The notes: generated by a model not told the origin, from the letters alone. A DNA stretch of 64,000 nucleotides from an uncultured Gammaproteobacteria bacterium (GCA_964592195.1 CAZQEI010000005.1:5689-69688); one strand, 5' to 3'; counted from the first letter of the stretch, positions 23,187-62,092 are shown. Program-made: numbers and translations.

Positions 23187-23308
23187 TACGAATGACGTAT
23201 TTGCTACGCCTGCCCCGCTGTGCGGGGAAACTACATATACATATAGTGAATAACTAAAAGTTCTCAATATCCTAATTCGTAGATACGTAGCTGATTCGTT
23301 ATTGGTAG
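23187..23308. repeat. Composite GTAG-rich intergenic repeat family R2, copy i
   Basis: ctacgaatgacgtatttgctacgc + GC hairpin cctgccccgctgtgcgggg + cgtagatacgtagctgattcgttattggtag. The same architecture recurs at 33100, 44970 (inverted) and 52425. Confidence 0.6.
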
Positions 23309-23371
23309 GAGCCATATATCTTAATTAACAAAAAACAAACCGCCTGCGCGATCTGTCTTAAAGAATGTAAT

Positions 23372-23497
23372 TTATCTAGCCTTACTAGCTTTTTGAGCTT
23401 GTTTTCTAGCGTTTTTCTTGATAGTTCGAGATTTCTTGTCGAACTTTACCGGGTTATGGAACTTACTTGGTCGATCTGTTGGTCTTACTTTTTTCAT
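23372..23497 (-). CDS. small basic protein (41 aa), possibly ribosome-associated
   Basis: MKKVRPTDRPSKFHNPVKFDKKSRTIKKNARKQAQKASKAR is highly Lys/Arg-rich. It is below the ORF-track cutoff and has no secure family assignment. Confidence 0.3.
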   Translation of the reverse strand: MKKVRPTDRPSKFHNPVKFDKKSRTIKKNARKQAQKASKAR

Positions 23498-23570
23498 AAA
23501 ATAGTGTTGATTATTTTTTATATAATAGCACAAACATTAAAATATTTCAAGTTTTCGCCATTAATATACC

Positions 23571-24221
23571 TTATACATAATTTTCCGCTCCACAGTGAGG
23601 ACAATTAACTATTTTGTTAATAGTTGAAAATCTTACCCGATTCCATGGAACATCACTCTGGTACTTATATTGAAAGTCCTTTCCACAACCAAAACATTTT
23701 GTTGTTTTAATACTTCTATTAAGGCCATATACATTATATATCCCCTGATCAATATCAATTGCCTCTGGTATCGTATACTCACTCAGAGAAACTTTTTTAT
23801 TATTTAAATCTTCAAGAATTTTTTCTAATTTTGCCCGCTCTACTGCATTTTTAGCGTCAACACCAGAAAGCTTATCGGTATATCCTTTAATTAATTCGTT
23901 AAGATCTTTTTCATAAAGTTTAGCTTTCTCATCTCTCTCTTTATAAATACTTTCCATTGCCTTTTTTGCCTTTATAATATCTTCTTCTTGCCTATCAAAA
24001 AAATCATCAACTCGCTTTTTTTGATCAGAACTATTCTTCCACAAATAAACAGAAACAACTATCGCAATAACTGCAATTAAAATAGTTAAAAAACCAATCA
24101 TCAAACCATAGGGATTTGTCCACAAACTAAGCTGTTGATTTGTTTTTTCAACGATAGATGCATAGTTATTCAACATAGCATCGTATTCAGTTGGAACACT
24201 TTGTAATACTGTTTCTTCCAT
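23571..24221 (-). CDS. membrane-anchored coiled-coil protein with C-terminal Zn-ribbon
   Basis: One TM segment (GLMIGFLTILIAVIAIVVSVYL), a charged coiled-coil region, and C-terminal CFGCG...CPHCG. The likely start MEETVLQ is at 24219-24221; the track ORF start at 24278 reads through a tRNA-like fragment. Confidence 0.4.
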   Translation of the reverse strand: MEETVLQSVPTEYDAMLNNYASIVEKTNQQLSLWTNPYGLMIGFLTILIAVIAIVVSVYLWKNSSDQKKRVDDFFDRQEEDIIKAKKAMESIYKERDEKAKLYEKDLNELIKGYTDKLSGVDAKNAVERAKLEKILEDLNNKKVSLSEYTIPEAIDIDQGIYNVYGLNRSIKTTKCFGCGKDFQYKYQSDVPWNRVRFSTINKIVNCPHCGAENYV

Positions 24222-24254
24222 ATTTTCTGAGTAAATATGTAATACTAAGATATT

Positions 24255-24273
24255 TGGAGCGGATAAGGGGAAT
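24255..24273 (-). repeat. tRNA 3'-end-like fragment (minus strand ...ATTCCCCTTATCCGC-T-CCA), copy 1
   Basis: The 19-nt tggagcggataaggggaat is exactly repeated at 24400-24418. It has no 5' acceptor partner (no GCGGATA upstream), so it is not a complete tRNA. Confidence 0.5.
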
Positions 24274-24399
24274 CTCACGTCGTCACGAATTATTCGTGAC
24301 TCCCGTAGGGGTTTCCACCCCTACGTTACCCCCAGAATATAGGGGGCATACCCCCTATCACCCCCGGTTCGATTCCAAAGCAGTCATATTTAATTATTC

Positions 24400-24444
24400 T
24401 GGAGCGGATAAGGGGAATTGAACCCCTCTCTCAACCTTGGGAAG
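24400..24444 (-). repeat. tRNA-like remnant, copy 2: T-arm (GGGG-TTCAATT-CCCC), acceptor 3' strand and CCA, plus anticodon-loop-like CTTCCCAAGG
   Basis: It shares the 3' 19 nt with copy 1 and the loop CTTCCCAAG with the downstream tRNA-Gly. The D-arm and 5' acceptor region is replaced by the CCTGCCTGCCGGCAGGCAGG palindrome (24445-24464). Confidence 0.45.
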
Positions 24445-24464
24445 CCTGCCTGCCGGCAGGCAGG
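24445..24464. repeat. REP-like 20-bp perfect palindrome CCTGCCTGCCGGCAGGCAGG
   Basis: Exact copy. Confidence 0.7.
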
Positions 24465-24512
24465 GTCGCATAAAATAAATTACATTACATTATTCTAATC
24501 GTACTAAATATC

Positions 24513-24586: not shown

Positions 24587-24695
24587 CTAGTCATTGATCA
24601 TTAGACAAAAAGCAACTGAATTATACCTGATTTAAACCAAAATTGGAAGAGTCACTAAAAATAAAAATCAACCCATTTAGGTTGATTAATTTAAT

Positions 24696-27154: not shown

Positions 27155-27592
27155 CTAATTATTCTCAATACTTCTCCCCGCTCCCTTTGTTAAATGTTTC
27201 TTACCAACTTTTAACCGTGCCAATTCTTTTTCCATCATAGCAGACAAGGCTGCAAATTCCTTGGCATCAAAGCGTTTAGTGTTTAAAGCTTCTTCCGCGC
27301 GTTTTCTGGCAGCCTCGGCACGTTCGACATCCAATTCTTCCGCGCGTTCTGCAGTATCGGCTAAGCAAACCACTTTATCGGGCAAAACCTCAATGAAACC
27401 ACCGGAAACCGCCAAAGAAATTTCTTCACCGTCTTTTTTAATTAAAACTTCACCCGGTTTAAGAACCGAAATCAATGGAATGTGATTGGGAAGAATGGTA
27501 ATCTCACCTTGCATAGTTGGCAAAGTGATCTGATCCACTTCTTCTTTGTAAACCACACGCTCGGGAGTGGCTATTTTAAAATTTATCTTCAT
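27155..27592 (-). CDS. atpC: F1 ATP synthase epsilon subunit
   Basis: The N-terminal beta-sandwich ITLPTMQGEITILPNHIPLI and operon position. Confidence 0.85.
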   Translation of the reverse strand: MKINFKIATPERVVYKEEVDQITLPTMQGEITILPNHIPLISVLKPGEVLIKKDGEEISLAVSGGFIEVLPDKVVCLADTAERAEELDVERAEAARKRAEEALNTKRFDAKEFAALSAMMEKELARLKVGKKHLTKGAGRSIENN

Positions 27593-27698
27593 ATTCGTAA
27601 TTCGTTATACGATAAACGTGAAACGATATGTAACTGGTAACCCGTAACCTGTAATCCGTAATATCGGTAATATCTGTAACACATCAGTATATCCGTAA

Positions 27699-29081
<1,383 letters not shown>

Positions 29082-29131: not shown

Positions 29132-29151
29132 CCTGCCTGCCGGCAGGCAGG
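29132..29151. repeat. REP-like 20-bp perfect palindrome CCTGCCTGCCGGCAGGCAGG followed by cgtag and a second hairpin-rich segment (ggtgtcatccgacacc, ggcatgtcgaatgacatgcc)
   Basis: Exact copy between atpG and atpD. The flanking hairpin block also occurs at 640-690. Confidence 0.7.
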
Positions 29152-29226
29152 CGTAGTATCAGTAGCAGATCCGTAGATCCGTGGTGTCATCCGACACCAC
29201 TGGCATGTCGAATGACATGCCGTAGT

Positions 29227-33099: not shown

Positions 33100-33195
33100 C
33101 TACGAATGACATATTTGCTACGCTTGTCCGCCTCAGGCGGAAAACAACGGATATAATATCGATACGTAGATTCGTAGCTGATTCGTTATTGGTAG
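33100..33195. repeat. Composite GTAG-rich intergenic repeat family R2, copy ii
   Basis: tctacgaatgacatatttgctacgc + GC hairpin ccgcctcaggcgg + cgtagattcgtagctgattcgttattggtag. Confidence 0.6.
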
Positions 33196-35680: not shown

Positions 35681-38104
35681 CTACTCAGCTGGTTGCATCA
35701 TTAACCGTTCCCAATCGGTGATATCAATTACTCTTGTGACAATTTTATCATCTAACAACGCAATGACTTTCACAAAATTATTTTTAATATGCTCGAAATG
35801 ATAAATCTCATCAAATTCTTGACTGCACTGCTCACCATCTTCATTCATTAAACATTCTTCATCATCCCCTTTTGCCATAAAAAATACCTTGCCATTTATC
35901 ACTTTAAAAGCTTCAAATTTTTTATATTGTTTGTCTACATCAATCTTTTTTCCTTTAATGTATATTATTGAATGTCCATTATTCTTATATGCAATTAAAG
36001 ATAATTCTCCCGGAAAAATATTATCAATGTACTCTATGTCATCACAACCATCAGGAATTATATCCACCCCATCTAAAAGAAGATGTTTCCCGGTACCATC
36101 AAGATAGTCAAAGATCACATGACCTGATACTTCAATCGGTTCGCCTACTTTCCAACAGCCTAACTGAGGTGTTACCAATTTATCATTAATGAACACATGA
36201 AAATTATTATTTTGATAATCACGAACAGAAATCACAACCTTTCCGGCGATATTATGAACTACCGGTTTTTGATCTATTCCATTATTTCTCAATGATAATT
36301 GCTTGCCTTTATAAAACACCTGCCAAGTGCCATCATTTGACGCAGTATAAAAGACTCCCATTTCTGCCATTTCTTGAGAAGTGAATAAATGATCACAACC
36401 AAGTATTGGCGTCACTTCTTTATCATCATAATACAAATGTTGTTTACCCTGTTCATCAACAACCCAATATTCCAAATGATTTTTGGTGGCAATTAAATCT
36501 TTTAGTTCTTCATGGCCAGAAGGATCGGTTATTTCTTGGTCTCCAACAAACACATGCCATTTATCATCCAATGTTTTTGCTGTATAAGCCACCTTACCTT
36601 TATATTCTACAATCTTACCATCATCAATTGTTACATGCTGAAACTCCCGATTGGCGGATAACTCTTTTTTTCCATAATATAAATGATCATTGCCTACTTG
36701 ATCTCTGGCGGTAAAAACAATCTCACCAGCTAAAGTTTGCATCTGAAAGTAATTCACCTGACAACAATCATCATTATTTATTTTTTCATTATTAATATAA
36801 ATGTCATGCATCCCCTTTCTTGGCCCAAGGCTCTTTTTTACCACGGTCACGATTTGACCATTAATCACCTTCACTTTAATAATTTCATATTCAATACCAA
36901 GCGTTAGAACCTCCTTCTTGCCATGGATAATAATTCGATTGTGATGATCGTCAACAACATCAAAGACAGGCAAACCATTTAAATCATGAATTTCTGTAAT
37001 TTCTTCATATCCGTTTGGAGGGGTATATTCCTTTTGGCCAACAAAAACATGATGGCGTCTCCCCAACTTTCTATCAATTGTCTCGGTAATATATGCAACA
37101 TTCTCACCCACATCATAATTTTTATTCGGTGTTACACATCCTTCAGGTGGAGTAATCTCTTTGTCTCCATAAAAAATATGTACTACTTTTTCATCATTAA
37201 AAATAAAATTAAAATAAATCTTACCTCCTCTATCTATCGGCCCGAGCAATGAGCTGATTGGTTTGGGCGTATTAAATTCTTGTCCATCTATATAGACATG
37301 AAGATTGCCATCATTATCACTCGCAGTGAGAAACGAATGTCCGGCAATTACATCAACTTTATAATGTCGTTTATGCCCAGGTTTTAAAATGATTTCCTTA
37401 CCATCAAGATAATAATGACGCTGATCATTTTCATCAATCGCCTCAAAATATATTTTACCAGTTGACTCTTTAGGTTTTGTGATTTGTATATAACCATCCG
37501 GAGGTGTCACCCATTTTCCATTAAGATACGCATGACTCTTTGCGCTCTTATCTGTGGCCAATAAGATCAATTGGCCAGCCTCTCCGTTTTGTAAAATTTT
37601 AAACGTTAATGTTCCTTTGGGATGAATAATTTCTTTACCTTTTAAAAAAATGCGATCAACTTTATCTGCTCCTTGTACTTTAATAAAAGATTCTCCATGA
37701 ACCAGTCGACGAGAAATATGCAAGGCTCCTTCCTTATCCAAAACTGATTTATTATCAATATACAAATGTTGACGTCCTGGATTATCTTTCAAAACAAACG
37801 ACGAATGGCCAGCCAAAACCTCTGGATCAATTTCAATCGACCTACCATTTAATTTAACTTCCTTTTCTAAGTATTTAAAAGACTCCAACGATTCTTCGAA
37901 CGTGGCGATATCATGATATTTCCCCACTAAACGTAAAGCCTCAGCCACAGCTTCTGGATTTTTATCTTTTAACTTTTCGGTTAATTCCATCAACTTCTCG
38001 TTCACCGCAACCAAATCAGGCGCGGATTGGCGCGAAATATCGGCGGTGAGTTTTTGGGTGGGAAAGTTTTTCATTGAATTAGTCATTTCGAATTTACGAA
38101 TCAA
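35681..38104 (-). CDS. N-module family protein F6 (807 aa) with a long internal tandem-repeat (about 45 aa units) C-terminal region
   Basis: N-terminal QKLTADISRQSAPDLVAVNEKLMELTEKLKDKNPEAVAEALRLVGKYHD. Repeated units of type G..HhYhDGKEh.P.G follow (HLYIDNK, HVYIDGQ, HVFVGQKE, HLYYGKKE, HVFVGDQE, HLYYDDKE, FHVFINDK). The start may be the downstream Met at 38086. Confidence 0.55.
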   Translation of the reverse strand: MIRKFEMTNSMKNFPTQKLTADISRQSAPDLVAVNEKLMELTEKLKDKNPEAVAEALRLVGKYHDIATFEESLESFKYLEKEVKLNGRSIEIDPEVLAGHSSFVLKDNPGRQHLYIDNKSVLDKEGALHISRRLVHGESFIKVQGADKVDRIFLKGKEIIHPKGTLTFKILQNGEAGQLILLATDKSAKSHAYLNGKWVTPPDGYIQITKPKESTGKIYFEAIDENDQRHYYLDGKEIILKPGHKRHYKVDVIAGHSFLTASDNDGNLHVYIDGQEFNTPKPISSLLGPIDRGGKIYFNFIFNDEKVVHIFYGDKEITPPEGCVTPNKNYDVGENVAYITETIDRKLGRRHHVFVGQKEYTPPNGYEEITEIHDLNGLPVFDVVDDHHNRIIIHGKKEVLTLGIEYEIIKVKVINGQIVTVVKKSLGPRKGMHDIYINNEKINNDDCCQVNYFQMQTLAGEIVFTARDQVGNDHLYYGKKELSANREFQHVTIDDGKIVEYKGKVAYTAKTLDDKWHVFVGDQEITDPSGHEELKDLIATKNHLEYWVVDEQGKQHLYYDDKEVTPILGCDHLFTSQEMAEMGVFYTASNDGTWQVFYKGKQLSLRNNGIDQKPVVHNIAGKVVISVRDYQNNNFHVFINDKLVTPQLGCWKVGEPIEVSGHVIFDYLDGTGKHLLLDGVDIIPDGCDDIEYIDNIFPGELSLIAYKNNGHSIIYIKGKKIDVDKQYKKFEAFKVINGKVFFMAKGDDEECLMNEDGEQCSQEFDEIYHFEHIKNNFVKVIALLDDKIVTRVIDITDWERLMMQPAE

Positions 38105-38186
38105 TTACGAATATGTTCGAATTATTATTTATCGGGCTCGGAAAGTAATTCGTAAAAATTCGAAACAAATTCGTACATTCGTAATG

Positions 38187-38703: not shown

Positions 38704-39675
38704 TCAAATACTTGGGTCTGGTTTCCATTTAAATAATATCCCTGCTGTCCCAAAGGCTGACATAGTCGGTCTCAAACCATCTTGACATAAAACAATTTCA
38801 TCATTCACCACGCCAACGCCCACATGATCTCTTCGCCTGACATCAAAAGCTCTAAAGAAACCTATATCACTACCTGGTTTATGAAAATGTTCTGGTCCAC
38901 GAACCATAATGAAATATAGTAATTCCTCAATCGTTACTCCATATTTTTCCCAAATTTTTTTTGCACTAGTCATCGATGGTTGTAATAGATTTAAATGACT
39001 AGCAAAATTTTGTATTGCTTTTGCACGAAGGAAAAAATCATCTTCCGTTAAACTTGACCCCTCCACAATGTTATTGCTAATCAACATCCAACCAGGAGAT
39101 AACGATTTCGTGTCCGGAATGTTTAGTCTTAAAATATCTGGAAAATTTCCGGCATTGAGAGAAGTGCTTTGCATTCTCATAGTCACTTTTCTATCAAGTA
39201 AAAAGCGACACATATCATAAAGTTTCGGAGACTCAGTTAATTTACCAGCAACAACCATATAACGAGGAATATAGACCAAGCTCATGTTCAATTCTTTTGC
39301 TCTTTTCAACTCGCCAACATTAAATGGAATCTCGGGTATCCCGGATCTTTCTTCCAAAAATAAATATTCATCAAATTTACTGCTACAAAACGCATTATCT
39401 TCTGGTCCGTAAACATTATCATGACCCATAATTTCTCGAGCTAATTCAAATTGCATCTCCCACGGGGAGCCAAACTCACGCCTTTTAACAGGATTATAAG
39501 CCTCTAATTTTTCTTTTATAATTCTAATCTCATCCGGACTCAAAGGCTTACCATTCTTAGCTTTCACCATGGCATGCAGTTGCTCCATTAAATCAGCGTA
39601 AGAAAGAGATTCTTCGCCTTTTGATAAGGTTAAATCAATTTTTGGTTCACCGATGGCCATATTTATTTTTCCCAT
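38704..39675 (-). CDS. N-module family protein A1 (type-A C-terminal domain)
   Basis: MAIGEPKIDLTLSKGEESLSYADLMEQLHAMVKAKNGKPLSPDEIRIIKEKLEA, then SLVYIPRY, GWMLISNNIV and a C-terminal GILFKWKPDPSI. The probable true start is the internal MAIGEPK Met. Confidence 0.55.
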   Translation of the reverse strand: MGKINMAIGEPKIDLTLSKGEESLSYADLMEQLHAMVKAKNGKPLSPDEIRIIKEKLEAYNPVKRREFGSPWEMQFELAREIMGHDNVYGPEDNAFCSSKFDEYLFLEERSGIPEIPFNVGELKRAKELNMSLVYIPRYMVVAGKLTESPKLYDMCRFLLDRKVTMRMQSTSLNAGNFPDILRLNIPDTKSLSPGWMLISNNIVEGSSLTEDDFFLRAKAIQNFASHLNLLQPSMTSAKKIWEKYGVTIEELLYFIMVRGPEHFHKPGSDIGFFRAFDVRRRDHVGVGVVNDEIVLCQDGLRPTMSAFGTAGILFKWKPDPSI

Positions 39676-40637
39676 TTGAATAAAATACCGGCTTGATGAA
39701 AAGAATCTGTGGCAGATAATAATTGCTCTTCAAATAGCACTAATTCTTTATGTGCCACGCCAATCCCAAACTGATCACCGTGTTCTTCACCATATGCACG
39801 AAAAACACCTTTATCACTACCGGACTTCCAAACTTTTTCTTCTCCACGCACAATGATAAAATATAATAATTCAACTATTGTTGGACAATGTTTTTTAAAA
39901 GTATCATCAATGTCAATATTTGAGCCTATTCGTTCATCAACGGACAAACGACTAAAAAACTCTTTCAATCTAAAAGCCCTCTGAAATTGATTTTCCTCAG
40001 TTAAGTCTGTGTTTTTCACTATTTGATTACTTATCATCATCCAACCAGAGGTTAAATGAATATAAAAATCTTTTTCTTTCACACTGCTTATGATTTCAAG
40101 CAAATTCCCAGCATTTATAGATCTGTCCATAAATCTCATTGCTTTCTGCATTTCTAAAAGCCTCAAGACCATGTGTACAAGCGATGGGATTTCTACATTT
40201 TTTTTCCTTACAATAATTCTTCCCGGCTTATACACCAAACACATATCCATTTCTTTTGCTCTTTTCAACTCATCCGCCGTAAATGGAATTTTATCAATAC
40301 CATACTTCATCTCGGCCTGCATATATTCGTCAAACTCGTTACCATAACAAAAAACATTTTGCTCAGGTCCATAGACATTGCCCTCGCCCATGATTTCTCG
40401 AGCAACATTAACTTGATCTTCCCAATCTCCACTAATTTCTTTTTGATTTCCAGGATCAAAAGACTCTAGTTTATCTTTAATGATTCTAATTTCATCCGGA
40501 CTCAATGGCTTACCATTCTTAGCTTTCACCATGGCATGCAGTTGCTCCATCAACTCGGCGTAAGAAAGTGATTCTTCGCCTTTTGATAAAGTTAATCCAA
40601 TTTTTGGTTCTCCGATGGCCATAATTATTTCTCCCAT
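39663..40637 (-). CDS. N-module family protein A2 (type-A)
   Basis: Colinear tandem paralog. MCLVYKP, GWMMISNQIV and a C-terminal GILFKWEK. Confidence 0.55.
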   Translation of the reverse strand: MGEIIMAIGEPKIGLTLSKGEESLSYAELMEQLHAMVKAKNGKPLSPDEIRIIKDKLESFDPGNQKEISGDWEDQVNVAREIMGEGNVYGPEQNVFCYGNEFDEYMQAEMKYGIDKIPFTADELKRAKEMDMCLVYKPGRIIVRKKNVEIPSLVHMVLRLLEMQKAMRFMDRSINAGNLLEIISSVKEKDFYIHLTSGWMMISNQIVKNTDLTEENQFQRAFRLKEFFSRLSVDERIGSNIDIDDTFKKHCPTIVELLYFIIVRGEEKVWKSGSDKGVFRAYGEEHGDQFGIGVAHKELVLFEEQLLSATDSFHQAGILFKWEK

Positions 40638-41554
40638 TTAAATAACACACCGCTATGTTTCAAATTACTGGTATTTGACAATGCATCGTTAACTAAAAAA
40701 CTTATTTCATTAAAAAATACACTTAAACAAAATGAATCCCTATGTTCTTCATCAAAAGCCCGAGCGACAAATCTATCTGATCTAGGCACCCACATATTTT
40801 TCACCCCTCGCACAAGACAAAAATACAAAAGTTCGGCCATTGACGGACAGTGTCTTTCCCATATAGCATTAGGCAAAACAGTATTTCCGGCTTCATATTC
40901 TTTGAATCTTAACCAATCATGACCAAAAAACGCCATTTTTTCAGCCCGCTCTCTGAAATTACTATCTTTGTCATCAGTTTTTTTTATTATATTTTTTGAA
41001 AGCAACATCCATCCTGATTTAAACATTGAATTTTTATCAATATTTTTTAAAACATCTTTATCCAACCCACAATTGATAGTTACTCCCAAATTCTTTGCCA
41101 CTTCCATAAAAGATTCAAGTCTGGGATTATACATTTCAACATTTGAAAATCTAAATGCCCAAGGTTTATAGACTAAACACATATCCGCTCTTCCCGCCAG
41201 CTCAAGGTCAAATTCAGAAAAAGGAATATCTGGGATATTATTAAGTATCTTCGTGTTTAACGCTGATGCAATTACATCTGGTCCATACACATTTTCCGCT
41301 CCCAATATTTCTCTGGCAATATTTACATCCGCTCGATCAAATTCATATTGATTTGATTTATCAGGAACAAAAGCTTCTAATTTTTCTTTTATAATTCTAA
41401 TCTCATCCGGACTCAAAGGCTTACCATTCTTAGCTTTCACCATGGCATGAAGTTGTTCCATCAACTCAGCATAAGAAACTGATTCTTCGCCTTTTGATAA
41501 TGTTAAATCAATTTTTGGTTCACCAATGGCCATAGTTAAATAAATTTTTCCCAT
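40625..41554 (-). CDS. N-module family protein A3 (type-A)
   Basis: Colinear tandem paralog. MCLVYKP, GWMLLSKNII and a C-terminal GVLFKWEK. Confidence 0.55.
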   Translation of the reverse strand: MGKIYLTMAIGEPKIDLTLSKGEESVSYAELMEQLHAMVKAKNGKPLSPDEIRIIKEKLEAFVPDKSNQYEFDRADVNIAREILGAENVYGPDVIASALNTKILNNIPDIPFSEFDLELAGRADMCLVYKPWAFRFSNVEMYNPRLESFMEVAKNLGVTINCGLDKDVLKNIDKNSMFKSGWMLLSKNIIKKTDDKDSNFRERAEKMAFFGHDWLRFKEYEAGNTVLPNAIWERHCPSMAELLYFCLVRGVKNMWVPRSDRFVARAFDEEHRDSFCLSVFFNEISFLVNDALSNTSNLKHSGVLFKWEK

Positions 41555-42453
41555 TTAAACATAACGCCGGAACCTTTAAGCTCATCCTTATTAGTTAACT
41601 TTTCTTCATCAAAACCAAATAACTTATTCCCCGTCATCGCCAATCCCAAATAATGTATTTGCGATTTGTCGTATCCACGAGCTTTAAAGATCTCTTGCCC
41701 GGACAGCATTAATCGCTCTTTTCCCAAGGTCATCATTACAAATAATAATTCGGGCAAAGACATAACATGATTTTGCCACAATCTTTTAGCCAGATTTTCA
41801 TTCATGGCCTCATTGTACCCCATATCCAATCTATTAACCGCGAAATCCTGCAAACATGCTGCTTGTTGAAAATAGTTCTTGCCACCCACAGAAAGTTGTA
41901 AAACATTTTTTGATACTAGCACCCAGCCAGAATGCATCATATTACTCGGAACTAAATTTGGATTATTTTCCGCCCAACTAAAAGCATCAAAACTTTCAGT
42001 TACCAATTGACTCATAGCTTCAAAACTTACTCCCAGAGTTTCGCTCAGTCCAAACTGTTCCGGTGTTGGTTTATAAATCAAAAACATTCCACACTCACTG
42101 GCTTTTTGCAATTTCTCTTCGGTAAAACGGATGGCGGGTAATTCAGCGATGGGCGCCAAACTCCAACGTGTAGCAATTTCATCTGGTCCAATAAAATTTT
42201 CTCCAAACAAACCTCTCGCCACCTCCATCTGCGCTTCCACCCTGGCGCGCTTTAACATTTTTTCATGATTAAATCGGTTCTCTTTATATTTATCAAATAA
42301 TTTGCAAACATAAGCTACATCATCTGGATCCAGATGAACACCTTTTCCCTTGGCCAATACCAACGCATGAAGTTTTTCTGTTAACTCCGCGTAAGACAGA
42401 TGATCATCGTCTTGCGATAAGGTTAAATCAATTTTGGGTTCACCGATTGCCAT
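41536..42453 (-). CDS. N-module family protein A4 (type-A)
   Basis: Colinear tandem paralog. MFLIYKP, GWVLVSKNVL and a C-terminal GVMFKWEKFI. Confidence 0.55.
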   Translation of the reverse strand: MAIGEPKIDLTLSQDDDHLSYAELTEKLHALVLAKGKGVHLDPDDVAYVCKLFDKYKENRFNHEKMLKRARVEAQMEVARGLFGENFIGPDEIATRWSLAPIAELPAIRFTEEKLQKASECGMFLIYKPTPEQFGLSETLGVSFEAMSQLVTESFDAFSWAENNPNLVPSNMMHSGWVLVSKNVLQLSVGGKNYFQQAACLQDFAVNRLDMGYNEAMNENLAKRLWQNHVMSLPELLFVMMTLGKERLMLSGQEIFKARGYDKSQIHYLGLAMTGNKLFGFDEEKLTNKDELKGSGVMFKWEKFI

Positions 42454-42455
42454 AA

Positions 42456-43361
42456 TTATTTAGACCATCGAATTATACATCCATTATCAATAAATGCTCT
42501 CTCACCATCAAAAAAAGAATTATAATCATACACCAATATACTTCCATCATTCTCTATATCGACCAAAGCGGTAAAATCCCCTTCTTTTCTATCATAAGCT
42601 AATGAGGTTAAAATACCCGGGATATTTTCTTTACCTCTCAAAACATAATAATAAAGGAGATCAACGACAGATAAACAAAACTCTGGTAAAACATTTTCCG
42701 TCTGAGGGCTAAATCGTTCTTTGAAATGGGCGGTAGCAAATTCCCAAATTTTCGATGACCTATCCAAGGTCGTGCATTTTTTTGTACCGGGAACAATATC
42801 CTTGCTGATTAACACCCATCCACTTAGCATACTGGACGAATCTTGAACTCTTTTACTAATATCATCCCACTTTTCATTTCCCCAACGTAAATTTATCCCA
42901 ATTTCATGCGCCTTCTCACATAATTCTTTCAAATTTGGATAGCTAACATCTTCGCCTCCTACATTAATTTTATTAGGTCGAAAAACTAAGCACATGCCAG
43001 CTGATTCTGCTCTTTTTAATTCTTCCACTGAATATGGAATATCTAAGACCTCTTGTGGCCAAGGTGATTTCCATCTTTCGACAAACTCCTGTGGGCCTAA
43101 CACATTTTCCTTCCCCAAAATTTCTCTAGCCTGTTTCAATTGACGTTTAAGATTTTTAGATAATTGATCTTCTGAATCAACCACTTCATTAGGAGTAAAC
43201 GCTTCTAATTTATTTTTAATTAATCGAATCTCATCTGCCGTCAATGGTTTACCATTCTTCGCTTTCATTATGTCATGCAACTCAGACATCAAACCAGCGT
43301 AGGAAATTTCTTCCTCGCCTTTGGATAAAGTTAAATCTAATTGTGGTTCTCCTCCCACCAT
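42456..43361 (-). CDS. N-module family protein A5 (type-A, most divergent)
   Basis: MVGGEPQLDLTLSKGEEEISYAGLMSELHDIMKAKNGKPLTADEIRLIKNKLEA, then MCLVFRP, GWVLISKDIV and a C-terminal GCIIRWSK. Confidence 0.5.
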   Translation of the reverse strand: MVGGEPQLDLTLSKGEEEISYAGLMSELHDIMKAKNGKPLTADEIRLIKNKLEAFTPNEVVDSEDQLSKNLKRQLKQAREILGKENVLGPQEFVERWKSPWPQEVLDIPYSVEELKRAESAGMCLVFRPNKINVGGEDVSYPNLKELCEKAHEIGINLRWGNEKWDDISKRVQDSSSMLSGWVLISKDIVPGTKKCTTLDRSSKIWEFATAHFKERFSPQTENVLPEFCLSVVDLLYYYVLRGKENIPGILTSLAYDRKEGDFTALVDIENDGSILVYDYNSFFDGERAFIDNGCIIRWSK

Positions 43362-44930: not shown

Positions 44931-44969
44931 AAAATTAATATTAACAAATATAATTAATTAGGTCTTTTC

Positions 44970-45090
44970 TACCAATAACGAATCAGCTACGAATCTACGT
45001 ATCGAAATATTTCTACATTTCATGAGCTTACATATTCGTAGTTTCCTGCCTGCCGGCAGGCAGGCGTAGCAAATTTGCCATACGTAGAAA
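44970..45090. repeat. Composite GTAG-rich intergenic repeat family R2, copy iii (inverted orientation) with the 20-bp palindrome in the central hairpin slot
   Basis: ctaccaataacgaatcagctacgaatctacgta ... cctgcctgccggcaggcagg (45045-45064) ... gcgtagcaaatttgccatacgtagaaac. Confidence 0.6.
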
Positions 45091-45916: not shown

Positions 45917-45945
45917 TTGACAAACTTTAAACTATGTGCTATAAT
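45917..45945 (+). promoter_or_regulatory. Consensus sigma70-type promoter TTGACA-17-TATAAT
   Basis: ttgaca (45917-45922), a 17-nt spacer, tataat (45940-45945). It lies directly upstream of the GC-rich non-coding island on the plus strand. Confidence 0.6.
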
Positions 45946-45951
45946 GCTTAG

Positions 45952-47508
45952 TTACATGATCGTTTACAATCAATAGCTCTCGTAGAGTCTTTTGACTCCG
46001 AGATGTCTATAACCAACTCCAAGCCCCCACCGAACTATGCACATTGGAGGTGCCGCAGGAATGCGATCGGGGGCAGATGCAGGGTGGACATGCCAAAGTA
46101 TAGGCTCGTAACAAAAACCGCGAGGAGAGAAGCGGTTTGAGCTGAAGCTGTGGACAACCCCACCCTAATTCGTCAAAACTCTCGCTCGAGCCACAAGGTT
46201 CGCGAGATAATTGACTGCTCCTCGTCAGATGAGCCGCAACCAACGGGACTCATGGCGAGGCACGCGCACGTATCTTGGTATGGAGTAAGCACCGCGGTTG
46301 ACCCTGCTGGTAACAGGGTGGTATATAACCGGCGGAAGCGCTACATAGTACAAGAGGTGCGGTGAAATCGAGCCCGATTCGTCGGGATTTCGATACGAGC
46401 TCCTGGAGCCCCCACCCAACAACACACCTGGAGGTGGCGCGTAATGCGTTTGGGGGCAGACAGCGGGTGAGACAGACTTGTCTCGACCAATTGACTACTC
46501 AAAGAAGTGAAAGATCCTCGACGAGAAAGTCTCACCCAAAGTCGTCGATTTCTCTACCGCAAGGTGGAGATCGAAGATACGCTGACTCGGACGATCGCGG
46601 TCCTGTGGCCCTCCCGCCCCTCTGCTGGTGGCAGAGATGGACAATCGTTCGAGCGTACCCCGGCCCTAAGCTCGGCTAACCCTGCGCCTCGCGGTGCACG
46701 GTCAAGCAGCTTCCGTGGCAGTCCTCACGAGGCTCGTTCGGTCGCTCGCTGGAGTCCTCTTCAGGATAAACCAGCCCGCCGCGACTGCGCCCCAGACTTC
46801 CGTCTGTCGGGGCTTACGCCTGTGGGGTTCGCACGCCACGCGAGGTGTCCGGGGATGCGAAGTTGATCGTTCTGCGAAAGTGGAACGTCGACATAGATCA
46901 CCACGCAACTCTCCCAGCAAATCCAGGGAGACTACCCGCCTTGAGTCTTTTGGGCCACGTGTGGACGAGTTAAATCGTCCTGTACAAGCCTCAGTTCGAA
47001 ACTGGCTCTAAGGCGGGCACGAAATTGACCACTCTTCGGAGTGTGTTGATACAGATCATCCGAGGGCTCGCAGCTCACACCCACTCGATGTGGGAGTCAG
47101 CTCTGAGCTCGTCAACGTGAGCACCAACGTCACTGGCGGTTCTTATCCGTCCAGAATCTGGTCAGCCTGAAGTACAAGGGCTGGTTGGAGGAGGGGTTCA
47201 CGGTGATGTCCATGGTGTCCGAACAATCGGACTGACCATATCAGAACGCCACCCATCGTCGCATGCGCAACGATTCATCGAACTCGGACATCCGAGACAC
47301 AGCATGACGCGACGATCGGGCGTTGATCCCCAGTTCACATCTGGTTCAGGCCGCAAACAAAAGCGACTGACCGATAAGCTGGGGACACGAATTCAGCCTT
47401 TGCTGATGGACAAGATGACTTCGGTCGTCGCGTTCTCGCAAAGTGTTGATAGATCTCAAGCTCCGACGTTGAACACCTCACGGTGAACAACGTCGGAGCA
47501 CTTTTTTT
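45952..47508 (+). ncRNA. Candidate large (about 1.55 kb) GC-rich structured non-coding RNA of unknown class, or a non-coding foreign insertion
   Basis: There is an abrupt shift to GC-rich sequence with no frame free of stops. The short ORFs are Arg/Pro/Ser-rich in all six frames. It is bounded by a consensus promoter and an intrinsic terminator, and carries an internal ~65-nt repeat (46024-46090 and 46409-46476). Confidence 0.45.
47461..47508 (+). terminator. Rho-independent terminator
   Basis: An 11-bp stem ctccgacgttg/caacgtcggag with an inner sub-hairpin cacc-tcac-ggtg, followed by cacTTTTTTTaTTT. Confidence 0.7.
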
Positions 47509-47619
47509 ATTTGGTAAGTTGGCCTGCCTGCGTAAGGCAGGTAATTGGTAAAAAAGTAAATTGGTACATGGAATATTAAAAAAACGAGCAAAATGCTCGA
47601 ATTTTTATTATTATTTTAT

Positions 47620-52425: not shown

Positions 52426-52565
52426 CTACCAATGACAAATCAGCTACGAATCTACGTATTCGATAAACATTTCTAGATTATTCTATTTGTAATTTCGTAG
52501 CAAATACGTTATTCGTAGACTATTACATTCGTAGTTACGTAGCAAATACGTTATTCGTAGCTAAC
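52425..52565. repeat. Composite GTAG-rich intergenic repeat family R2, copy iv
   Basis: ctaccaatgacaaatcagctacgaatctacgtattcg ... two copies of ttcgtagcaaatacgttattcgtag. Confidence 0.6.
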
Positions 52566-52573: not shown

Positions 52574-53473
52574 TTACTTTTGACACACAGAACAATAGCT
52601 CGTCCCCCTTTGCGCCACCTTCATCTTTTGAATGGTGGCTTTTTTGCATTTCAAACATTTCAAACCAGCGCGGCCATAAACCTTGAGGAAACGAACAAAG
52701 TTTCCTTTTTCTCCGCGCGCATCCACGTAAGTATTGAATGACGTGCCTCGTTCTTCGATCGCTTTTTTCAAAATTTTAACTATAGCAATATATAACTTTT
52801 TTCTTTCTGCTAATTTTAAACTTTTCACCTTACGATCAGGCATCACTCCAGCCGCAAAGCAACTTTCATCTGCGTAAATATTGCCGATGCCGGCAATTAA
52901 TTCTTGCATCAATAAAACTTTTTTAATTTCCAAATTCGGTTTGCGTTTAAGAATCGAGTTAAAAACTTCCAAAGTAAATTCCGGCACAATCGGCTCCATT
53001 CCAAAACGCAATTTTTCTTTCGTCACTGTTGCTTCATCAGCTAACCGCAAATAACCAAACTTCCGCATATCATTGTAATACAATTTTCCCGCTGAACCGA
53101 AATCTAACAATACTTTATTAAATCGGTCTGGTGTTTGTCGCGATTGACCAATAGGGTGGCCGCCGGTGATAATTTTTCCCCTCGGCGGCACAAACACAAA
53201 TTGACCAGTCATTTTCATATGGGCCAAAACTTTCATTGATTTATCTCCGCCAAAGGCGGATCCGCCTCCGGCGGAGAAATCGAATATTAGCATTTTACCA
53301 ACACGTTCAACGCGATGAAATTTCGCGCCTTGCAAAAACTTAATAAATTTCTCTTTAGTCGGAGAAATTCTTTTTTTAAAATCATCTTTAATTTCAACCT
53401 GCAAAACCTTTTTGCCTTTCAAATACTTTTCCAAATCTCGGCGCACGGTTTCGACTTCGGGTAGTTCGGGCAT
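52574..53473 (-). CDS. mutM: formamidopyrimidine-DNA glycosylase
   Basis: N-terminal MPELPEVETVRR (catalytic Pro2/Glu3) and a C-terminal zinc finger CLKC...CSVCQ. It contains an in-frame GC-palindrome insertion at 53245-53285. Confidence 0.9.
   Translation of the reverse strand: MPELPEVETVRRDLEKYLKGKKVLQVEIKDDFKKRISPTKEKFIKFLQGAKFHRVERVGKMLIFDFSAGGGSAFGGDKSMKVLAHMKMTGQFVFVPPRGKIITGGHPIGQSRQTPDRFNKVLLDFGSAGKLYYNDMRKFGYLRLADEATVTKEKLRFGMEPIVPEFTLEVFNSILKRKPNLEIKKVLLMQELIAGIGNIYADESCFAAGVMPDRKVKSLKLAERKKLYIAIVKILKKAIEERGTSFNTYVDARGEKGNFVRFLKVYGRAGLKCLKCKKATIQKMKVAQRGTSYCSVCQK
53245..53285. repeat. GC-rich palindromic repeat ctccgccaaaggcggatccgcctccggcggag embedded in-frame in mutM
   Basis: It encodes SAGGGSAFGGD. 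The same ggcggatccgcc...ttggcggag element is intergenic at 5158-5190 and 9765-9810. Confidence 0.55.
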
Positions 53474-53594
53474 ACATTATTTAAATTCCAAATATTAAAA
53501 TTCCAAATTCCAAAGTTGGTGTTTTTTATCCGTAATATCAGCCCCAAAGGGGCCCCTTCGGGGTAAAATCGGTAATCAATCGGTATATCCGTAA

Positions 53595-54470
53595 CTACCA
53601 AACAATCAACATTCCTCCCACAATAATTAACGCTATTGCCATAACACGTTTCACCATTGTAGTCCGAGACATCGGTTCTTTGAAAAACTTCGAATGGAAG
53701 AAACTTAACAGTAAGATTAACAAGAAAACTAACAGGGGCTTGGTTGCCAGAATGGCACTCGGTAATGTTACCACACCGGTTGAAATAGCGGCCATGAAGC
53801 TTAACAGGGCGCCGGCTGAAATTAAGGCAGACAAGACAATGTGCCACACCCCGGCCTTGGCTTTTTCAATCAAATGCGGATGATGAAATATTATCATTAA
53901 TACAGGAATAATCAAACCACCTACACCAAACCAAAACATACTGGTATAAAAGTCAACTTCAGAGGTAATAAAGCGCATGAACAAATTTCTCAAAGCAAAA
54001 AATATCATTGCCCCAAAAGCCAACAGATGTCCAAAACCGATTTTCTTGCCATGCTTTTCATGTACCACCAAATACGCTCCCAAAACAATTATCCCGATCC
54101 CCAAATAACGTAGCCAGCTCAAAGATTCATTGAAAAACAGACAAGCTAATAACGCAATCACCAATGGCTCAGTCGCTAAGATAACTGTAAAGGATGAAAG
54201 TTTTTCAACCCGCGATGCTTGATAATCCAACCATACCGCACCGGAATAAATTATACCGGCAATTAATGCCGCAAACAATACCGGTAACGATACTGACAAA
54301 TCAGCGTGCATGATTGAAGATAAACAAATAAAAATCAAACATGCGACGACACAAAAGATTGTCATTGCCAGACGAGGATCTCGCATTTCTTTTTTAATTA
54401 CGTGAACATCAATGATCTCCACGATTGACCAGCCAAAGACGGCAATCAAAGTGAAAATTAACCACAACAT
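53595..54470 (-). CDS. EamA/DMT-family transporter
   Basis: A 291 aa, about 10-TM protein with duplicated EamA-like halves. Confidence 0.6.
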   Translation of the reverse strand: MLWLIFTLIAVFGWSIVEIIDVHVIKKEMRDPRLAMTIFCVVACLIFICLSSIMHADLSVSLPVLFAALIAGIIYSGAVWLDYQASRVEKLSSFTVILATEPLVIALLACLFFNESLSWLRYLGIGIIVLGAYLVVHEKHGKKIGFGHLLAFGAMIFFALRNLFMRFITSEVDFYTSMFWFGVGGLIIPVLMIIFHHPHLIEKAKAGVWHIVLSALISAGALLSFMAAISTGVVTLPSAILATKPLLVFLLILLLSFFHSKFFKEPMSRTTMVKRVMAIALIIVGGMLIVW

Positions 54471-55951: not shown

Positions 55952-55956
55952 GATAA

Positions 55957-58352: not shown

Positions 58353-58366
58353 GTATAAAATTCAAA

Positions 58367-59344: not shown

Positions 59345-59655
59345 TTAATAAGTTTATGAAATTTATTTTTTAATTTCCCTTTTTTACCAACGAATAATTT
59401 GTCTACTTCTGCAATCATTTCACCTAGACCAGCGTTTAATTCCTTTATGACTTTATCAAATAATTCAGCGTCGATAATTTTCGTAGTATCTTCATATTGC
59501 CCGACTAATTTCAAAGCCTCTGAAACTTGTTCTGGCGTCGCCTTTTTACCTTGTAACTTAACTCGCCTAGCCAACTCCATTAACTTCTCGTTTACATCTA
59601 CTTGATTAACAGCTTTTTCTGGAGTCACATTGGCAGTCAATTTTTCTTGACTCAT
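59341..59655 (-). CDS. N-module-only family member B5 (104 aa, truncated)
   Basis: MSQEKLTANVTPEKAVNQVDVNEKLMELARRVKLQGKKATPEQVSEALKLVGQYEDT with no C-terminal domain. Confidence 0.5.
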   Translation of the reverse strand: MSQEKLTANVTPEKAVNQVDVNEKLMELARRVKLQGKKATPEQVSEALKLVGQYEDTTKIIDAELFDKVIKELNAGLGEMIAEVDKLFVGKKGKLKNKFHKLIK

Positions 59656-60461
59656 ATTATTAATACCAATCGCAGAAATTCAATTATTTGTTGATTAAAT
59701 AAAACAAAAATCATTGTGGCCGGACAGAGGAAAACGGCCATAGGCAACGCACCGCCGAACTGTTTCCATTTTATCGCTAACAAAACAATGGCCACAATTG
59801 CTCCAACAATATACGCGACAAAAATTGTAAACACCAAACCTGTCCACCCGACCATTATGCCTATCAACGCACCCAATAACATATCACCATCCCCCACCCA
59901 TCTACCTTTGGAAATCGCATATTGAAAATAATAGAACAGAAAACCGACACCACCAGCCGCGAGCATGTTGGCGACTTGAAACCAGGTAAATCCAGTAACC
60001 ATCAAATTTAAAAAGAAAGCAATCGGTAGCATGATGTAGATCAAACTATCAATAATCGCAAACTCTTTCCAATCAATGACCATTATTACCAACAACACAG
60101 AAACAAAAAGAAAATCTTTAACCAACGATAAATAATCAAAACCAATAACTAGTTGTTCCCAGTGAAGTAATAAAATAATTTCAAACAAAATCGCAGTGAC
60201 TATTTCAACAATTGGATATTGCCAAGAAATTTTCGCTTTACAATGACGGCACAATCCTTTCAACCAAACAAAACTTAGAACCGGAATCAATTCAAAGAAA
60301 CCCAAAACATTTTGACATTTGGGACAATGCGATCGCGCGCGCTTCCAAATCGATTCGCCTTTGGGTAAGCGGCAAATTAAAACGTTTAAAAAACTGCCGA
60401 TTGCGAGTCCTAATATTATAGTGGCTATTGACGCTAAAATAATCATAAAAATATATTTCAA
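59652..60461 (-). CDS. pilD: prepilin peptidase (A24 family, type IV pilin leader peptidase/N-methyltransferase-like)
   Basis: N-terminal CxxC...CxxC (CPKCQ...CRHCK) and the catalytic Asp region GRWVGDGDMLLGALIG, with an about 8-TM layout. Confidence 0.8.
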   Translation of the reverse strand: MKYIFMIILASIATIILGLAIGSFLNVLICRLPKGESIWKRARSHCPKCQNVLGFFELIPVLSFVWLKGLCRHCKAKISWQYPIVEIVTAILFEIILLLHWEQLVIGFDYLSLVKDFLFVSVLLVIMVIDWKEFAIIDSLIYIMLPIAFFLNLMVTGFTWFQVANMLAAGGVGFLFYYFQYAISKGRWVGDGDMLLGALIGIMVGWTGLVFTIFVAYIVGAIVAIVLLAIKWKQFGGALPMAVFLCPATMIFVLFNQQIIEFLRLVLII

Positions 60462-60606
60462 ATCTTGGAGATTGGTATTTGATTATTGGGATTTGGGATT
60501 TCCGCTTGGAGAATTATTTTCCCCACACTAAAGCAGTCCAACCCCAGATCCCCGCTCGTAGGCGGGGATGACGGAGTGTGTGGGCAATTGACCTTCACTT
60601 CAAGAA

Positions 60607-61605
60607 TTACTTTCCCAAGCGGCTCGCCATTTCAACTAACCGATGCGAATAGCCCCATTCATTATCATACCAAGCGAGAACTTTAACTAAATTACCACCA
60701 ACCACGCGAGTGAAATTTGAATCAACGATTGATGATGCTGTGGTGTTCAAAATATCCGTGGAAACTAATTCTTCATCAGTGACTTCCAACACACCTTTGA
60801 ATCGTGCAGTTTTTGAAGCTTTAATTAATGCCTTGTTCACTTCTTCCGCAGTAGTATTCTTTCTCAACACTGCCACCACGTCAATTAACGATCCGCAGAC
60901 AACTGGCACGCGAATGGAAATACCATCAAATTTATCTTTTAATTGTGGTAAAGTTAAAGCCGTAGCTTTGGCGGCACCCGTACTAGTTGGCACAATATTG
61001 CCAACGATTGAACGACCTTCTCTCCAATCTTTCGCATTAGCCATATCCACAGTACGTTGACTGGCAGTCGTGGCGTGAACAGTGGTTAACAAAGCTTTTT
61101 CCACGCCAAAAACTTCATCCAAAACTGCCATAACAGGAGCAGTACAATTAGTAGTGCAGGAAGCATTGGCTACCACCTTTTGACCTTTAGCTTTTTCCTC
61201 GTTAACACTACGAACAACAGTCACGACACCTTCACTCTTTGATGGCGCGGAAATCAAAACAGCTTTGGCTCCAGCTTTCAAATGTTTGGAAGCATCTTCC
61301 ATTTTGGTAAACACTCCGGTACATTCAAGCACCACATCCACCTTATGTTTTTTCCAGGGTAAAGCAGCCGGATCAGTGCCTTGATAAAAAGCGATTTTTT
61401 TATTATTAACAATTAAATAATTACCGCTGACACTAACCTTACCCTTAAACCGACCTTGCGAAGTATCGTACTTGAGTAAATACGCTAAGTTGTTCAAATC
61501 CCCCAAGTCATTGATCGCGACTACCTGCATGTCTTTTTTGCCCAAAATAATTTTGAGCGAGGCCCGGCCAATACGACCGAAACCATTGATGGCTACATTT
61601 TTCAT
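60607..61605 (-). CDS. gap: glyceraldehyde-3-phosphate dehydrogenase
   Basis: NGFGRIGR Rossmann motif and the ASCTTNCTAPV active-site Cys region. Confidence 0.95.
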   Translation of the reverse strand: MKNVAINGFGRIGRASLKIILGKKDMQVVAINDLGDLNNLAYLLKYDTSQGRFKGKVSVSGNYLIVNNKKIAFYQGTDPAALPWKKHKVDVVLECTGVFTKMEDASKHLKAGAKAVLISAPSKSEGVVTVVRSVNEEKAKGQKVVANASCTTNCTAPVMAVLDEVFGVEKALLTTVHATTASQRTVDMANAKDWREGRSIVGNIVPTSTGAAKATALTLPQLKDKFDGISIRVPVVCGSLIDVVAVLRKNTTAEEVNKALIKASKTARFKGVLEVTDEELVSTDILNTTASSIVDSNFTRVVGGNLVKVLAWYDNEWGYSHRLVEMASRLGK

Positions 61606-61821
61606 ACGTTAAGTTTATCAGTTAATAAGTTTGTAAGTTTACAAGTAATAATACAAAATTATCTTATGCTTATAAGCTTAGACACTTAGAAACTATTTAT
61701 TTTGCTATCTGAATTAATTATACCATAAAGCGGTAACCAAGAACACCGATTTATCCCCTGTTATTCATGATTTTCAATATAAAAAAACCGCCTCAAAAGA
61801 AGCGATTTTGTAGCTTTAAAA

Positions 61822-62022
61822 TTATTGATTAACCGCGGAAGAAATCAAGGATTGCAACTGATCATTCATGGTCTTGGTCTGGTAATACATGGATCCGAAC
61901 AAGGCGGTGAAAGTTAAAAAGATTATCACCATAAATATCAATAACACCACAGTAAATCCATGAAAATATCTAATCTCTGACTCCCACCAATTTGTTTTTG
62001 TTTTTTTTATTTTTGCTTTCAT
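61822..62022 (-). CDS. small membrane protein (66 aa)
   Basis: A single TM helix, speculative. Confidence 0.25.
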   Translation of the reverse strand: MKAKIKKTKTNWWESEIRYFHGFTVVLLIFMVIIFLTFTALFGSMYYQTKTMNDQLQSLISSAVNQ

Positions 62023-62043
62023 GTGATATCTCTACAAATCTTT

Positions 62044-62092
62044 TACGAATAAGAATTCGTTGATTCGTAGCTAATTTGTTATTAGTAGAGAC
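62044..62092. repeat. GTAG-rich intergenic repeat family R2, short copy v
   Basis: ttacgaataagaattcgttgattcgtagctaatttgttattagtag. Confidence 0.45.

Follow-up and report, generated by a model that had tools for sequence, protein, structure and literature searches.

What kind of element is the GTAG-rich repeat that recurs five times within 39 kb of a bacterial chromosome, and what might have brought it there? We addressed this question for the element R2 in a stretch of 64,000 nucleotides (GCA_964592195.1, CAZQEI010000005.1:5689-69688); this whole stretch is called the window below, and all counts for the source genome refer to it. A preliminary description, made from the sequence alone, had presented R2 as two GTAG-rich arms around a central, exchangeable GC-rich hairpin and had raised the question of whether the hairpin slot coincides with a cleavage site of the kind used by RAYTs (transposases associated with repetitive extragenic palindromes, REPs). 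On balance, we think that the R2 copies are small, non-autonomous and gene-less selfish inverted-repeat insertions, comparable to miniature inverted-repeat transposable elements (MITEs): relatives, devoid of an open reading frame (ORF), of cassettes that resemble intervening sequences (IVS) and encode a GxxExxY protein, and from which we infer their mobilisation. The descriptive part of this reading, namely that R2 belongs to the family of the GxxExxY cassettes and that the GC hairpins are independent units nested at one octamer position, is well supported.

R2 is an inverted repeat built from iterated octamers

All five copies announced in the preliminary description are present, 1-12 nt from the positions it gave, and the sequences it quoted were confirmed by reading the sites. 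They measure 57-135 bp and hold no ORF (n=5 in 39 kb). Allowing up to 3 mismatches, the 23-nt right arm CGTAGCTGATTCGTTATTGGTAG was found five times and the left arm CTACGAATGACGTATTTGCTACG four times, compared to 0.00 expected from shuffled sequence in both cases (100 shuffles for the right arm); the fifth left arm, that of copy C, has 4 mismatches to CTACGAATGACGTATTTGCTACG. A profile search of the window with all arms retrieved 10 significant arms, with E from 1.5e-11 to 3e-5 and none outside the five R2 loci. Beyond these loci the best match had an E of 0.017, and no other fell below 0.01. From the shuffle counts and the profile search, the shared arms are thus not chance AT-rich sequence with fortuitous CGTAG occurrences. 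The CGTAG motif itself is enriched in the window (67 versus 40 +/- 6 expected), because of R2 and similar elements.

Once reverse-complemented, the right arm agrees with the left arm at 16-18 of 23 positions. The arms are therefore mutually inverted, and R2 is an inverted-repeat element. Alignment of the window copies with homologous metagenome elements (alignment A1; these elements are described below) gives an arm length of ~41 nt. Each arm consists of 3-4 iterated octamers, CTACGAAT-(A/G)ACG(A/T)AT-..-CTACGAAT-.-CTACGAAT, or ATTCGTAG on the opposite strand, and the element ends in CTAC...GTAG. Between the arms lies a variable, poorly conserved and AT-rich loop: the arms are 78-100% identical and the interiors (39-69 nt) cannot be aligned without gaps, their identities from gapped global alignment being left unused since AT-richness inflates them. 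The arms are not self-complementary and pair only with each other. In the predicted fold of every copy, left and right arms form a terminal stem from which the GC hairpin, where present, protrudes as a side branch (z-scores from -2.9 to -4.4 on the left-to-right strand and from -1.9 to -4.3 on the other).

This architecture differs from that first proposed. The hairpin is not central, with the arms around it; the inverted repeat surrounds the AT-rich loop, and the hairpin is a 19-20-nt insert within the ~41-nt left arm, between ...GCTACG and AAACTACGAAT, as seen in A1 and in the nhmmer alignment, which passes the left arm across the GC hairpin as an insert. The slot splits one left-arm octamer (CTACG^AAA). 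Not every copy is occupied either: copies A, B and C carry the hairpins as quoted (P2 in copy A, CCTG-CCCCGC-TGT-GCGGGG), and copies D and E have no GC hairpin. In copy D both slots are empty (between 52496 and 52495 and between 52538 and 52537), as is the slot of all homologous metagenome elements. The idea of a modular element stands in the form of a fixed slot, either empty or filled with differing GC hairpins.

Two candidate roles of the arms were rejected. A three-frame stop cassette is excluded by one open frame in the arm, which is the frame used in an IscU gene described below. A DNA-uptake sequence is excluded by the distribution of ATTCGTAG, which is confined to arms and not scattered through genes.

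Hairpins of separate families occupy one octamer position

A scan of the window for GC-rich hairpins assigned the slot hairpins to dispersed families: each is a separate family (P1, P2, P3), also found outside R2 (Table 1). Of the eight P1/P2 units, six are placed immediately 3′ of ACG, each splitting an octamer, and this over four different arm types. The background for an ACG immediately 5′, on either strand, is ~2% as estimated from base composition; a looser computed control, which accepts an ACG at a distance of 0-4 nt on either strand, puts it at 8.5%. In copy B, P3 is 4 nt from the equivalent CTACG. The preferential location of the palindromes in GTAG-rich arms, proposed in the preliminary description, is thus borne out for P1/P2 (6/8 versus roughly 2%). 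Its two alternatives, insertion into the arms or transport by them, are not fully separable, as locus L020, from the same metagenome as the relative L002 (see below), has a P1 similarly placed, ~65 nt from an R2-type right arm.

Table 1. Coordinates of R2 copies, related arms and hairpin families in the window
Feature	Position	Strand	Context	Parts or sequence
R2 copy A	23186..23308	+	intergenic, between two minus-strand genes	left arm outer 23186-23208; P2 hairpin 23209-23227; left arm inner 23228-23245; AT-rich loop; right arm 23268-23308
R2 copy B	33100..33195	+	atpB-atpE spacer, within ATP synthase operon	left arm 33100-33122; slot 33123-33141, CTTG + P3 hairpin TCCGCC-TCA-GGCGGA; right arm 33155-33195
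R2 copy C	44969..45087	-	rsmI-metG spacer	right arm 44969-45009; left arm inner 45027-45044; P1 20-bp palindrome 45045-45064; left arm outer 45065-45087
R2 copy D	52426..52560	-	occupies spacer between convergent DUF212 and fpg genes	right arm 52426-52466; complete tandem left arms 52478-52518, 52520-52560
R2 copy E	62032..62088	+		compact form, without hairpin; short left arm CTACAAAT-CTTT-TACGAAT 62032-62050; AAG; complete right arm variant 62048-62088
Sibling ORF-less inverted repeat	38088..38186	.	between 807-aa ORF and cvpA	TTACGAAT/ATTCGTAA octamers
ATTCGTGG-type arm fragment	6986..7033	-		P2 (6997-7015) in slot, CCACG^AAT on minus strand
Paralogous ATTCGTGG-type arm	8301..8360	-		three octamers; P2-like hairpin 8336-8354 in slot CCCACG^AAT
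Degenerate solo arm	14276..14341	+		TACGAAT-TAAT-TACG^AAT-GTT-TGCGAAT; P1 (14298-14317) in slot
ATCCGTAG-type octamer arm	29132..29225	-		P1 (29132-29151) directly 3′ of CTACG (CTACG^GAT)
P1 family	9776, 14298, 24445, 29132, 45045			20-bp palindrome, CCTGCCTGCCGGCAGGCAGG
P2 family	6997, 8336, 23209			CCTG-CCCCGC-N3-GCGGGG
P3 family	5156, 5171, 33127, 53246, 53261			TCCGCC-N3-GGCGGA
P1/P2 slot sites				CTACG^AAA (copies A, C); TTACG^AAT (14298); CCACG^AAT (6997, 8336); CTACG^GAT (29132)

The hairpins also combine with each other and with genes. The P1-bearing arm at 29132 is joined to two more GTAG-tagged hairpins of another family, and the P1 at 9776 is nested within a P3 doublet. The P3 doublet at 53246-53275 (minus strand) forms an exact 30-nt in-frame insertion in fpg, adding 10 residues (SAGGGSAFGG) compared to the Fpg of the relative L001. 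A near-identical P3 doublet (5156-5185) lies near the 5′ end of ORF 3961-5226.

The P1 at 24445 adjoins the remnant of a tRNA 3′ half (24393-24469, minus strand), with an anticodon-loop-like CTTCCCAAGG, a T-arm, the 3′ strand of the acceptor and a CCA that is encoded. The 5′ half is missing; the remnant starts exactly at the P1 copy and lies ~45 nt downstream of an intact tRNA-Gly(CCC). Its T-arm is unlike that of tRNA-Gly(CCC), which indicates the remnant of a second tRNA gene and not a duplication. A split or intron-containing tRNA was considered and rejected, since there are 3 acceptor pairs at most and no ARAGORN call.

Further intergenic octamer arrays (ATCCGTAA, ATCCGTAG) occur in the window at 27590-27700, 600-725, 29152-29225 and 53562-53597, often joined to GTAG-tagged hairpins (GTGTC-ATCC-GACAC; GGCATGTC-GAAT-GACATGCC-GTAG), and one of them is found within the atpD-atpC spacer. 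In another organism (L019, 1656-1723), an arm is broken within its second octamer by a 33-34-nt unit, CCTG plus hairpin (CCTG-CCTAGTA...TACTAGG on the opposite strand); this is a tagged hairpin of the P2 kind, at a different CG^ position.

R2 is absent from two of three comparable spacers of relatives

The chromosome that carries R2 is that of a member of the Patescibacteria (candidate phyla radiation, CPR). The methionyl-tRNA synthetase (MetRS) of the window has one 100% identical database protein, and its next relatives include entries labelled Parcubacteria, Falkowbacteria and Patescibacteria. Two relatives, L001 and L002 (MetRS identity 65% and 70%, respectively), are syntenic with the window between 33 and 53 kb. 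The spacer between fpg and DUF212 is 9 nt long in L001 and 148 nt long in the window, where 135 nt are those of copy D. The atpB-atpE spacer of L001 contains no R2, and in L002 a different repeat, of the ATTCGCAG type, sits between rsmI and metG. The comparison of related intergenic regions recommended in the preliminary description gave presence/absence differences: R2 is missing at two of three comparable spacers. Three copies face one direction relative to the uniformly minus-strand genes and two the opposite one; copy D lies between convergent gene ends.

The arms recur in metagenomes and bracket a small nuclease gene

A scan of JGI metagenomes gave 25 loci with the arm, two of which (L006, L011) are apparent chance matches; the others agree almost completely in their consensus arm, (CAAGTG)ATTCGTAGAATTCGTAGCTAATTCGTTATTCGTAG. 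L003, L004, L010 and L026 hold full inverted repeats, whose arms are ~41 nt and loops 13-30 nt long. Many loci have solo arms, which typically fill tiny spacers, 0-7 nt from a start or stop codon. This adjacency was considered as a signal and rejected, being judged a by-product of the very short spacers of CPR genomes. Some arms are part of genes: at L024 a solo arm within IscU is translated in its sole open frame (ATNNELATNSTNHL) as a ~15-residue insertion (NifU_N 7.9e-40), and at L020 and L005 dNK and NifU genes take their final codons, including the stop, from the arm. At L027 (2990-3300; equivalent to ~8490-8760 of L030), a 688-aa nrdD ORF stops one base before a solo arm, and ~100 nt further on, the arm included, comes a separate ORF of 53 aa that matches NRDD in Pfam and shows, by inspection, an RVVGY glycyl-radical-type motif; this nrdD appears to be split by the repeat.

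L027 also links the arms to a gene. There, inverted arms bracket a 130-aa ORF (4529-4921), and the whole fills the gap between two genes. The product belongs to PF13366 (PDDEXK_3, 2e-25) and TIGR04256 ('GxxExxY protein', 9e-23). Six further GxxExxY homologues, 40-54% identical, were taken with their contigs, identities within the seven-gene set ranging from 40 to 100%. All seven genes (7/7), which come from unrelated contigs, lie between inverted arms of 3-4 iterated octamers, with termini usually CTAC...GTAG. The octamers are of the type CTACGAAT at L030/L027, TTACGAAT at L037, L038 and L041, TTACGAAA at L036, TACAAAT at L043 and TACTAAT/TACGAA at L034; the L027/L030 gene is bracketed by the very ~41-nt arm type of R2. 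These cassettes are ~0.5 kb long, hold a single gene and occupy narrow spacers within conserved operons, between rpsG and fusA, the hydrogenase small and large subunit genes, serS and hpf, or pilB and pilC.

The alignment of the GxxExxY family shows an invariant D...E-x-K. An AlphaFold (AF2) model of the protein (pLDDT 91.7) has a minimal PD-(D/E)xK fold, whose nearest neighbours by fold comparison are Cas4 SSO0001 (E 3e-5), lambda exonuclease, tRNA-splicing endonucleases and Hjc. Comparison of the sequence with PDB chains gave nothing meaningful; only the fold comparison was informative.

Another cassette of the same architecture lies in the window itself (16300-16910, minus strand). Its gene (16411-16791) encodes a '23S rRNA intervening-sequence protein' (PF05635/TIGR02436) and has its own ~40-nt purine-rich inverted repeats (ACAGGAGAAA...GACGAGGGAGAC), between protein-coding genes and not in rRNA. 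A second IVS-protein gene is present at L038, flanked by iterated TCTAATT/AATTAGA.

What might move R2

That 7/7 GxxExxY genes are bracketed by the same kind of octamer arms leads us to read R2 as an ORF-less relative of these cassettes and not as a REP moved by a RAYT. The latter explanation, in which GTAG-tagged inverted pairs (REP doublets, REPINs, or bacterial interspersed mosaic elements, BIMEs) are moved by a Y1 HUH transposase and the GC hairpin with its GTAG is the REP unit, would account for the C-GTAG that every slot hairpin abuts on one strand, for another GTAG 3 nt off on the hairpin's other side in copies A and C, and for the extragenic location of R2 in inverted pairs and mosaic clusters with other hairpins; moreover, GTAG REPs within longer palindromes are known in Anabaena variabilis (PMC3733652). 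We nevertheless regard it as quite improbable: the GTAG is owned by the arm octamer and retained at empty slots (copy D, metagenome elements), the arms are no palindromes, only the nested GC hairpins having this feature, and they match the repeats of GxxExxY cassettes, flanking PD-(D/E)xK genes instead. REP units are themselves imperfect palindromes of 20-40 bp, with stems of 6-13 bp, and a cognate RAYT gene is typically flanked by them; their canonical order is GTAG-stem-loop. The order in R2 is consistently hairpin-C-GTAG, with the tag 3′ on the GTAG strand, that is, its mirror. The P1/P3 copies at 9776, 24445, 5156 and 53246 have no GTAG nearby, and we found no Y1/RAYT transposase either in 20 window ORFs that are small or unassigned or among the genes listed, with Pfam annotation, for nine related loci. 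It is also rather unlikely that R2 is a host cis-element, i.e. a long stem in polycistronic mRNA acting as RNase III site, as stabiliser or insulator, or as binding array for a host protein. Such a role would suit the location of all copies in transcribed spacers of compact operons (e.g. atpB-atpE, rsmI-metG), the predicted terminal stems that beat shuffled controls (z to -4.4), the conservation of the arms next to variable interiors and, by inspection of the sequence, the better pairing of the left-to-right arm strand via G:U pairs; the stems of 23S IVS are real RNase III substrates (PMC4990558). It fits poorly with the two orientations relative to transcription (three versus two), with copy D between convergent gene ends, with the absence of R2 from two of three comparable spacers, including both compared in L001, in relatives that express these genes without it, and with the solo arms and in-frame or gene-truncating insertions of relatives. 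R2 has no match in Rfam at the gathering threshold or at E<=1, and intrinsic terminators were rejected, as the slot hairpins have no T-run on either strand (AAAC on one, CGTAGCAAA on the other). A cis-regulatory or RNase III role may exist as a secondary effect.

The content of the slot allows a further history, possible although we do not favour it: a hairpin entered the slot a single time, A, B and C derive from a master copy that already bore it, and other hairpin families came in later by replacement or gene conversion. The right arms of A, B and C are identical and these copies are mutually closer than to the hairpin-less copy D, their inserts are all 18-20 nt long, start with CYTG and are followed by AAAC, and a related organism (L020) carries P1 about as far from a right arm of the R2 type. 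The three stems, however, are unrelated in sequence, each coming from its own dispersed family, and NTACG^RAT is also occupied in non-R2 arms (6997, 8336, 14298, 29132), which requires independent events; a single origin leaves the same position in four other arm types unexplained.

Several observations weigh against the reading of R2 as a mobilised cassette relative. Neither a target-site duplication (no direct repeat is shared in the flanks of copies A-D) nor any other transposition footprint was seen at R2 copies. No GxxExxY gene is found in the 64-kb window by tblastn, and the function of this family is listed as 'Unknown' (PMC3424549). That the arms are far better conserved than the interiors fits selection for a host function and recognition by a transposase equally well. 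The family is known from few environments, and GTDB is near-empty: among its representatives the R/Y-degenerate arm had 0 matches, and the arm with N positions had two (in an Acidobacteriaceae and in a cyanobacterial genome), both probably due to chance. The slot rule comes from one genome and is so far specific to it, 0/26 GC hairpins of the metagenome loci adjoining [TC]ACG.

If R2 is nonetheless an ORF-less relative of the GxxExxY cassettes, as we favour, the octamers would be recognition sites, at both ends, for the cassette nuclease, which would mobilise R2 in trans; R2 would be to the cassette what a MITE is to its parent transposon. The paired arms would form a long stem when transcribed. 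The P1, P2 and P3 hairpins would have been inserted at one precise octamer point, NTACG^RAT, and TACG^RAT may be a preferred break or target site at which hairpins are captured. A more far-reaching proposal, which we put forward tentatively, is that the octamer arms, (C/T)TACNAAT, and the GxxExxY protein together constitute an unrecognised mobile cassette, the protein, a minimal PD-(D/E)xK nuclease, binding the octamers at both ends and cutting within them at TACG^RAT. R2 and the solo arms would then be its non-autonomous derivatives, and the slot palindromes, either insertions captured at the break or products of its repair, would mark the cut.

Comparison with known systems

The IVS in the 23S rRNA gene of Coxiella is described as a selfish element bounded by a stem, in which tandem heptamers precede a small ORF and which RNase III excises (PMC4990558). 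R2, as we read it, is likewise a small selfish insertion, with complementary arms forming a long stem (predicted in all copies) and an optional small ORF in its relatives. Tandem direct repeats of 7-8 nt near the ORF start are a further likeness (GACAGAT, 3-4 times, in Coxiella burnetii; PMC4990558), as is the tiny, optional ORF of a sporadic family without assigned function (S23p in Coxiella burnetii). The location is different: R2 and its relatives are found in mRNA spacers and coding genes, whereas IVS lie in rRNA helices. The window contains no rRNA, all R2 copies being between protein genes, and a 23S-helix location does not apply. In addition, R2 has no ORF, and that of the presumed parent-type cassette encodes a GxxExxY PD-(D/E)xK nuclease and not S23p.

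With MITEs such as Correia/NEMIS or RU-1/ERIC, R2 has in common that it is short, gene-less, multicopy and intergenic, in either orientation and with terminal inverted repeats. These are shared with a larger, gene-bearing and presumably autonomous element, the L027/L030 GxxExxY cassette. Presence or absence differs between relatives, and occasional copies are in frame within genes. In contrast to MITEs, R2 has no target-site duplication, its arms are arrays of iterated octamers, solo arms are common, and its presumed parent encodes a 130-aa PD-(D/E)xK protein instead of a DDE transposase.

R2 recalls REP/REPIN/BIME systems by its GTAG motifs, inverted dimers, mosaic clusters and GC-rich stem-loops of 6-10 bp, as well as by occasional nesting in longer palindromes and occasional intragenic copies (PMC3733652). 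It differs in that its GTAG is within an iterated octamer and is not a single unpaired tag, and in that the tag is on the opposite side. Rickettsia palindromic elements (RPE) are selfish palindromic repeats tolerated in frame within protein genes, and the BOX elements of Streptococcus pneumoniae are modular, with separable sub-units and complementary ends. The arm insertion in IscU and the P3 insertion in Fpg resemble the former, and the modular build of R2 the latter. Both differ from R2 in having no sequence relation to it and other unit sizes, and neither is known to be associated with iterated octamers or with a gene for a nuclease.

Significance of the octamer-nuclease pairing

In the full-text literature we found nothing on REPs or MITEs in CPR/Patescibacteria, and nothing on a mobility or mobile-cassette role of GxxExxY proteins. 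Small repeats of CPR/Patescibacteria are essentially undescribed, and genomes of this phylum are typically ~1 Mb in size. With R2, such a streamlined genome offers a clear example of selfish elements nested in one another, with in-frame insertions in housekeeping proteins (Fpg, and IscU in a relative). The pairing of octamers and nuclease is a novel lead, REP biology and precedents for nesting being already known (PMC3733652). Inverted arrays of TACNAAT octamers are a sequence signature that would tie PF13366/TIGR04256, a widespread family without a function so far, to a mobile-cassette lifestyle in conserved operons, and TACG^RAT gives a precise candidate position for cleavage or targeting.

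If the link between nuclease and octamers is true, the movement of IVS-type elements becomes directly testable, and the same logic would explain the spread of ORF-bearing 23S rRNA IVS, which to our knowledge has never been worked out. It would also be a warning for annotation, many 'intergenic motifs' and small protein insertions of CPR genomes then being derived from repeats.

Other features of the window

The window has a G+C content of ~37%, and its minus strand holds nearly all genes. Their content is of the housekeeping kind (ATP synthase operon, metG, rsmI, fpg, gap, ligA). Two tandem arrays of paralogues were noticed: five genes of ~300 aa at 38704-43361, spaced by 908-962 bp, and four genes at 4900-9640, spaced by ~1356-1783 bp. 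In each array one member was scanned against Pfam, with no match.

A ~1.55-kb stretch at 45917-47510 (plus strand, opposite to almost all genes) is GC-rich (51% versus 37% background) and contains no ORF of at least 120 aa. It has no Rfam match, even at E<=1, and is not present in the syntenic region of L001 and L002. The fold of its first 298 nt has a z-score of -3.8, and internal motifs recur with a period of ~385-400 nt. A perfect TTGACA-17-TATAAT promoter (12/12, with an extended -10 TG) is found upstream, at 45917-45945, and the 3′ end consists of a long stem followed by a T-run (~47460-47510). This stretch looks like a large structured non-coding RNA.

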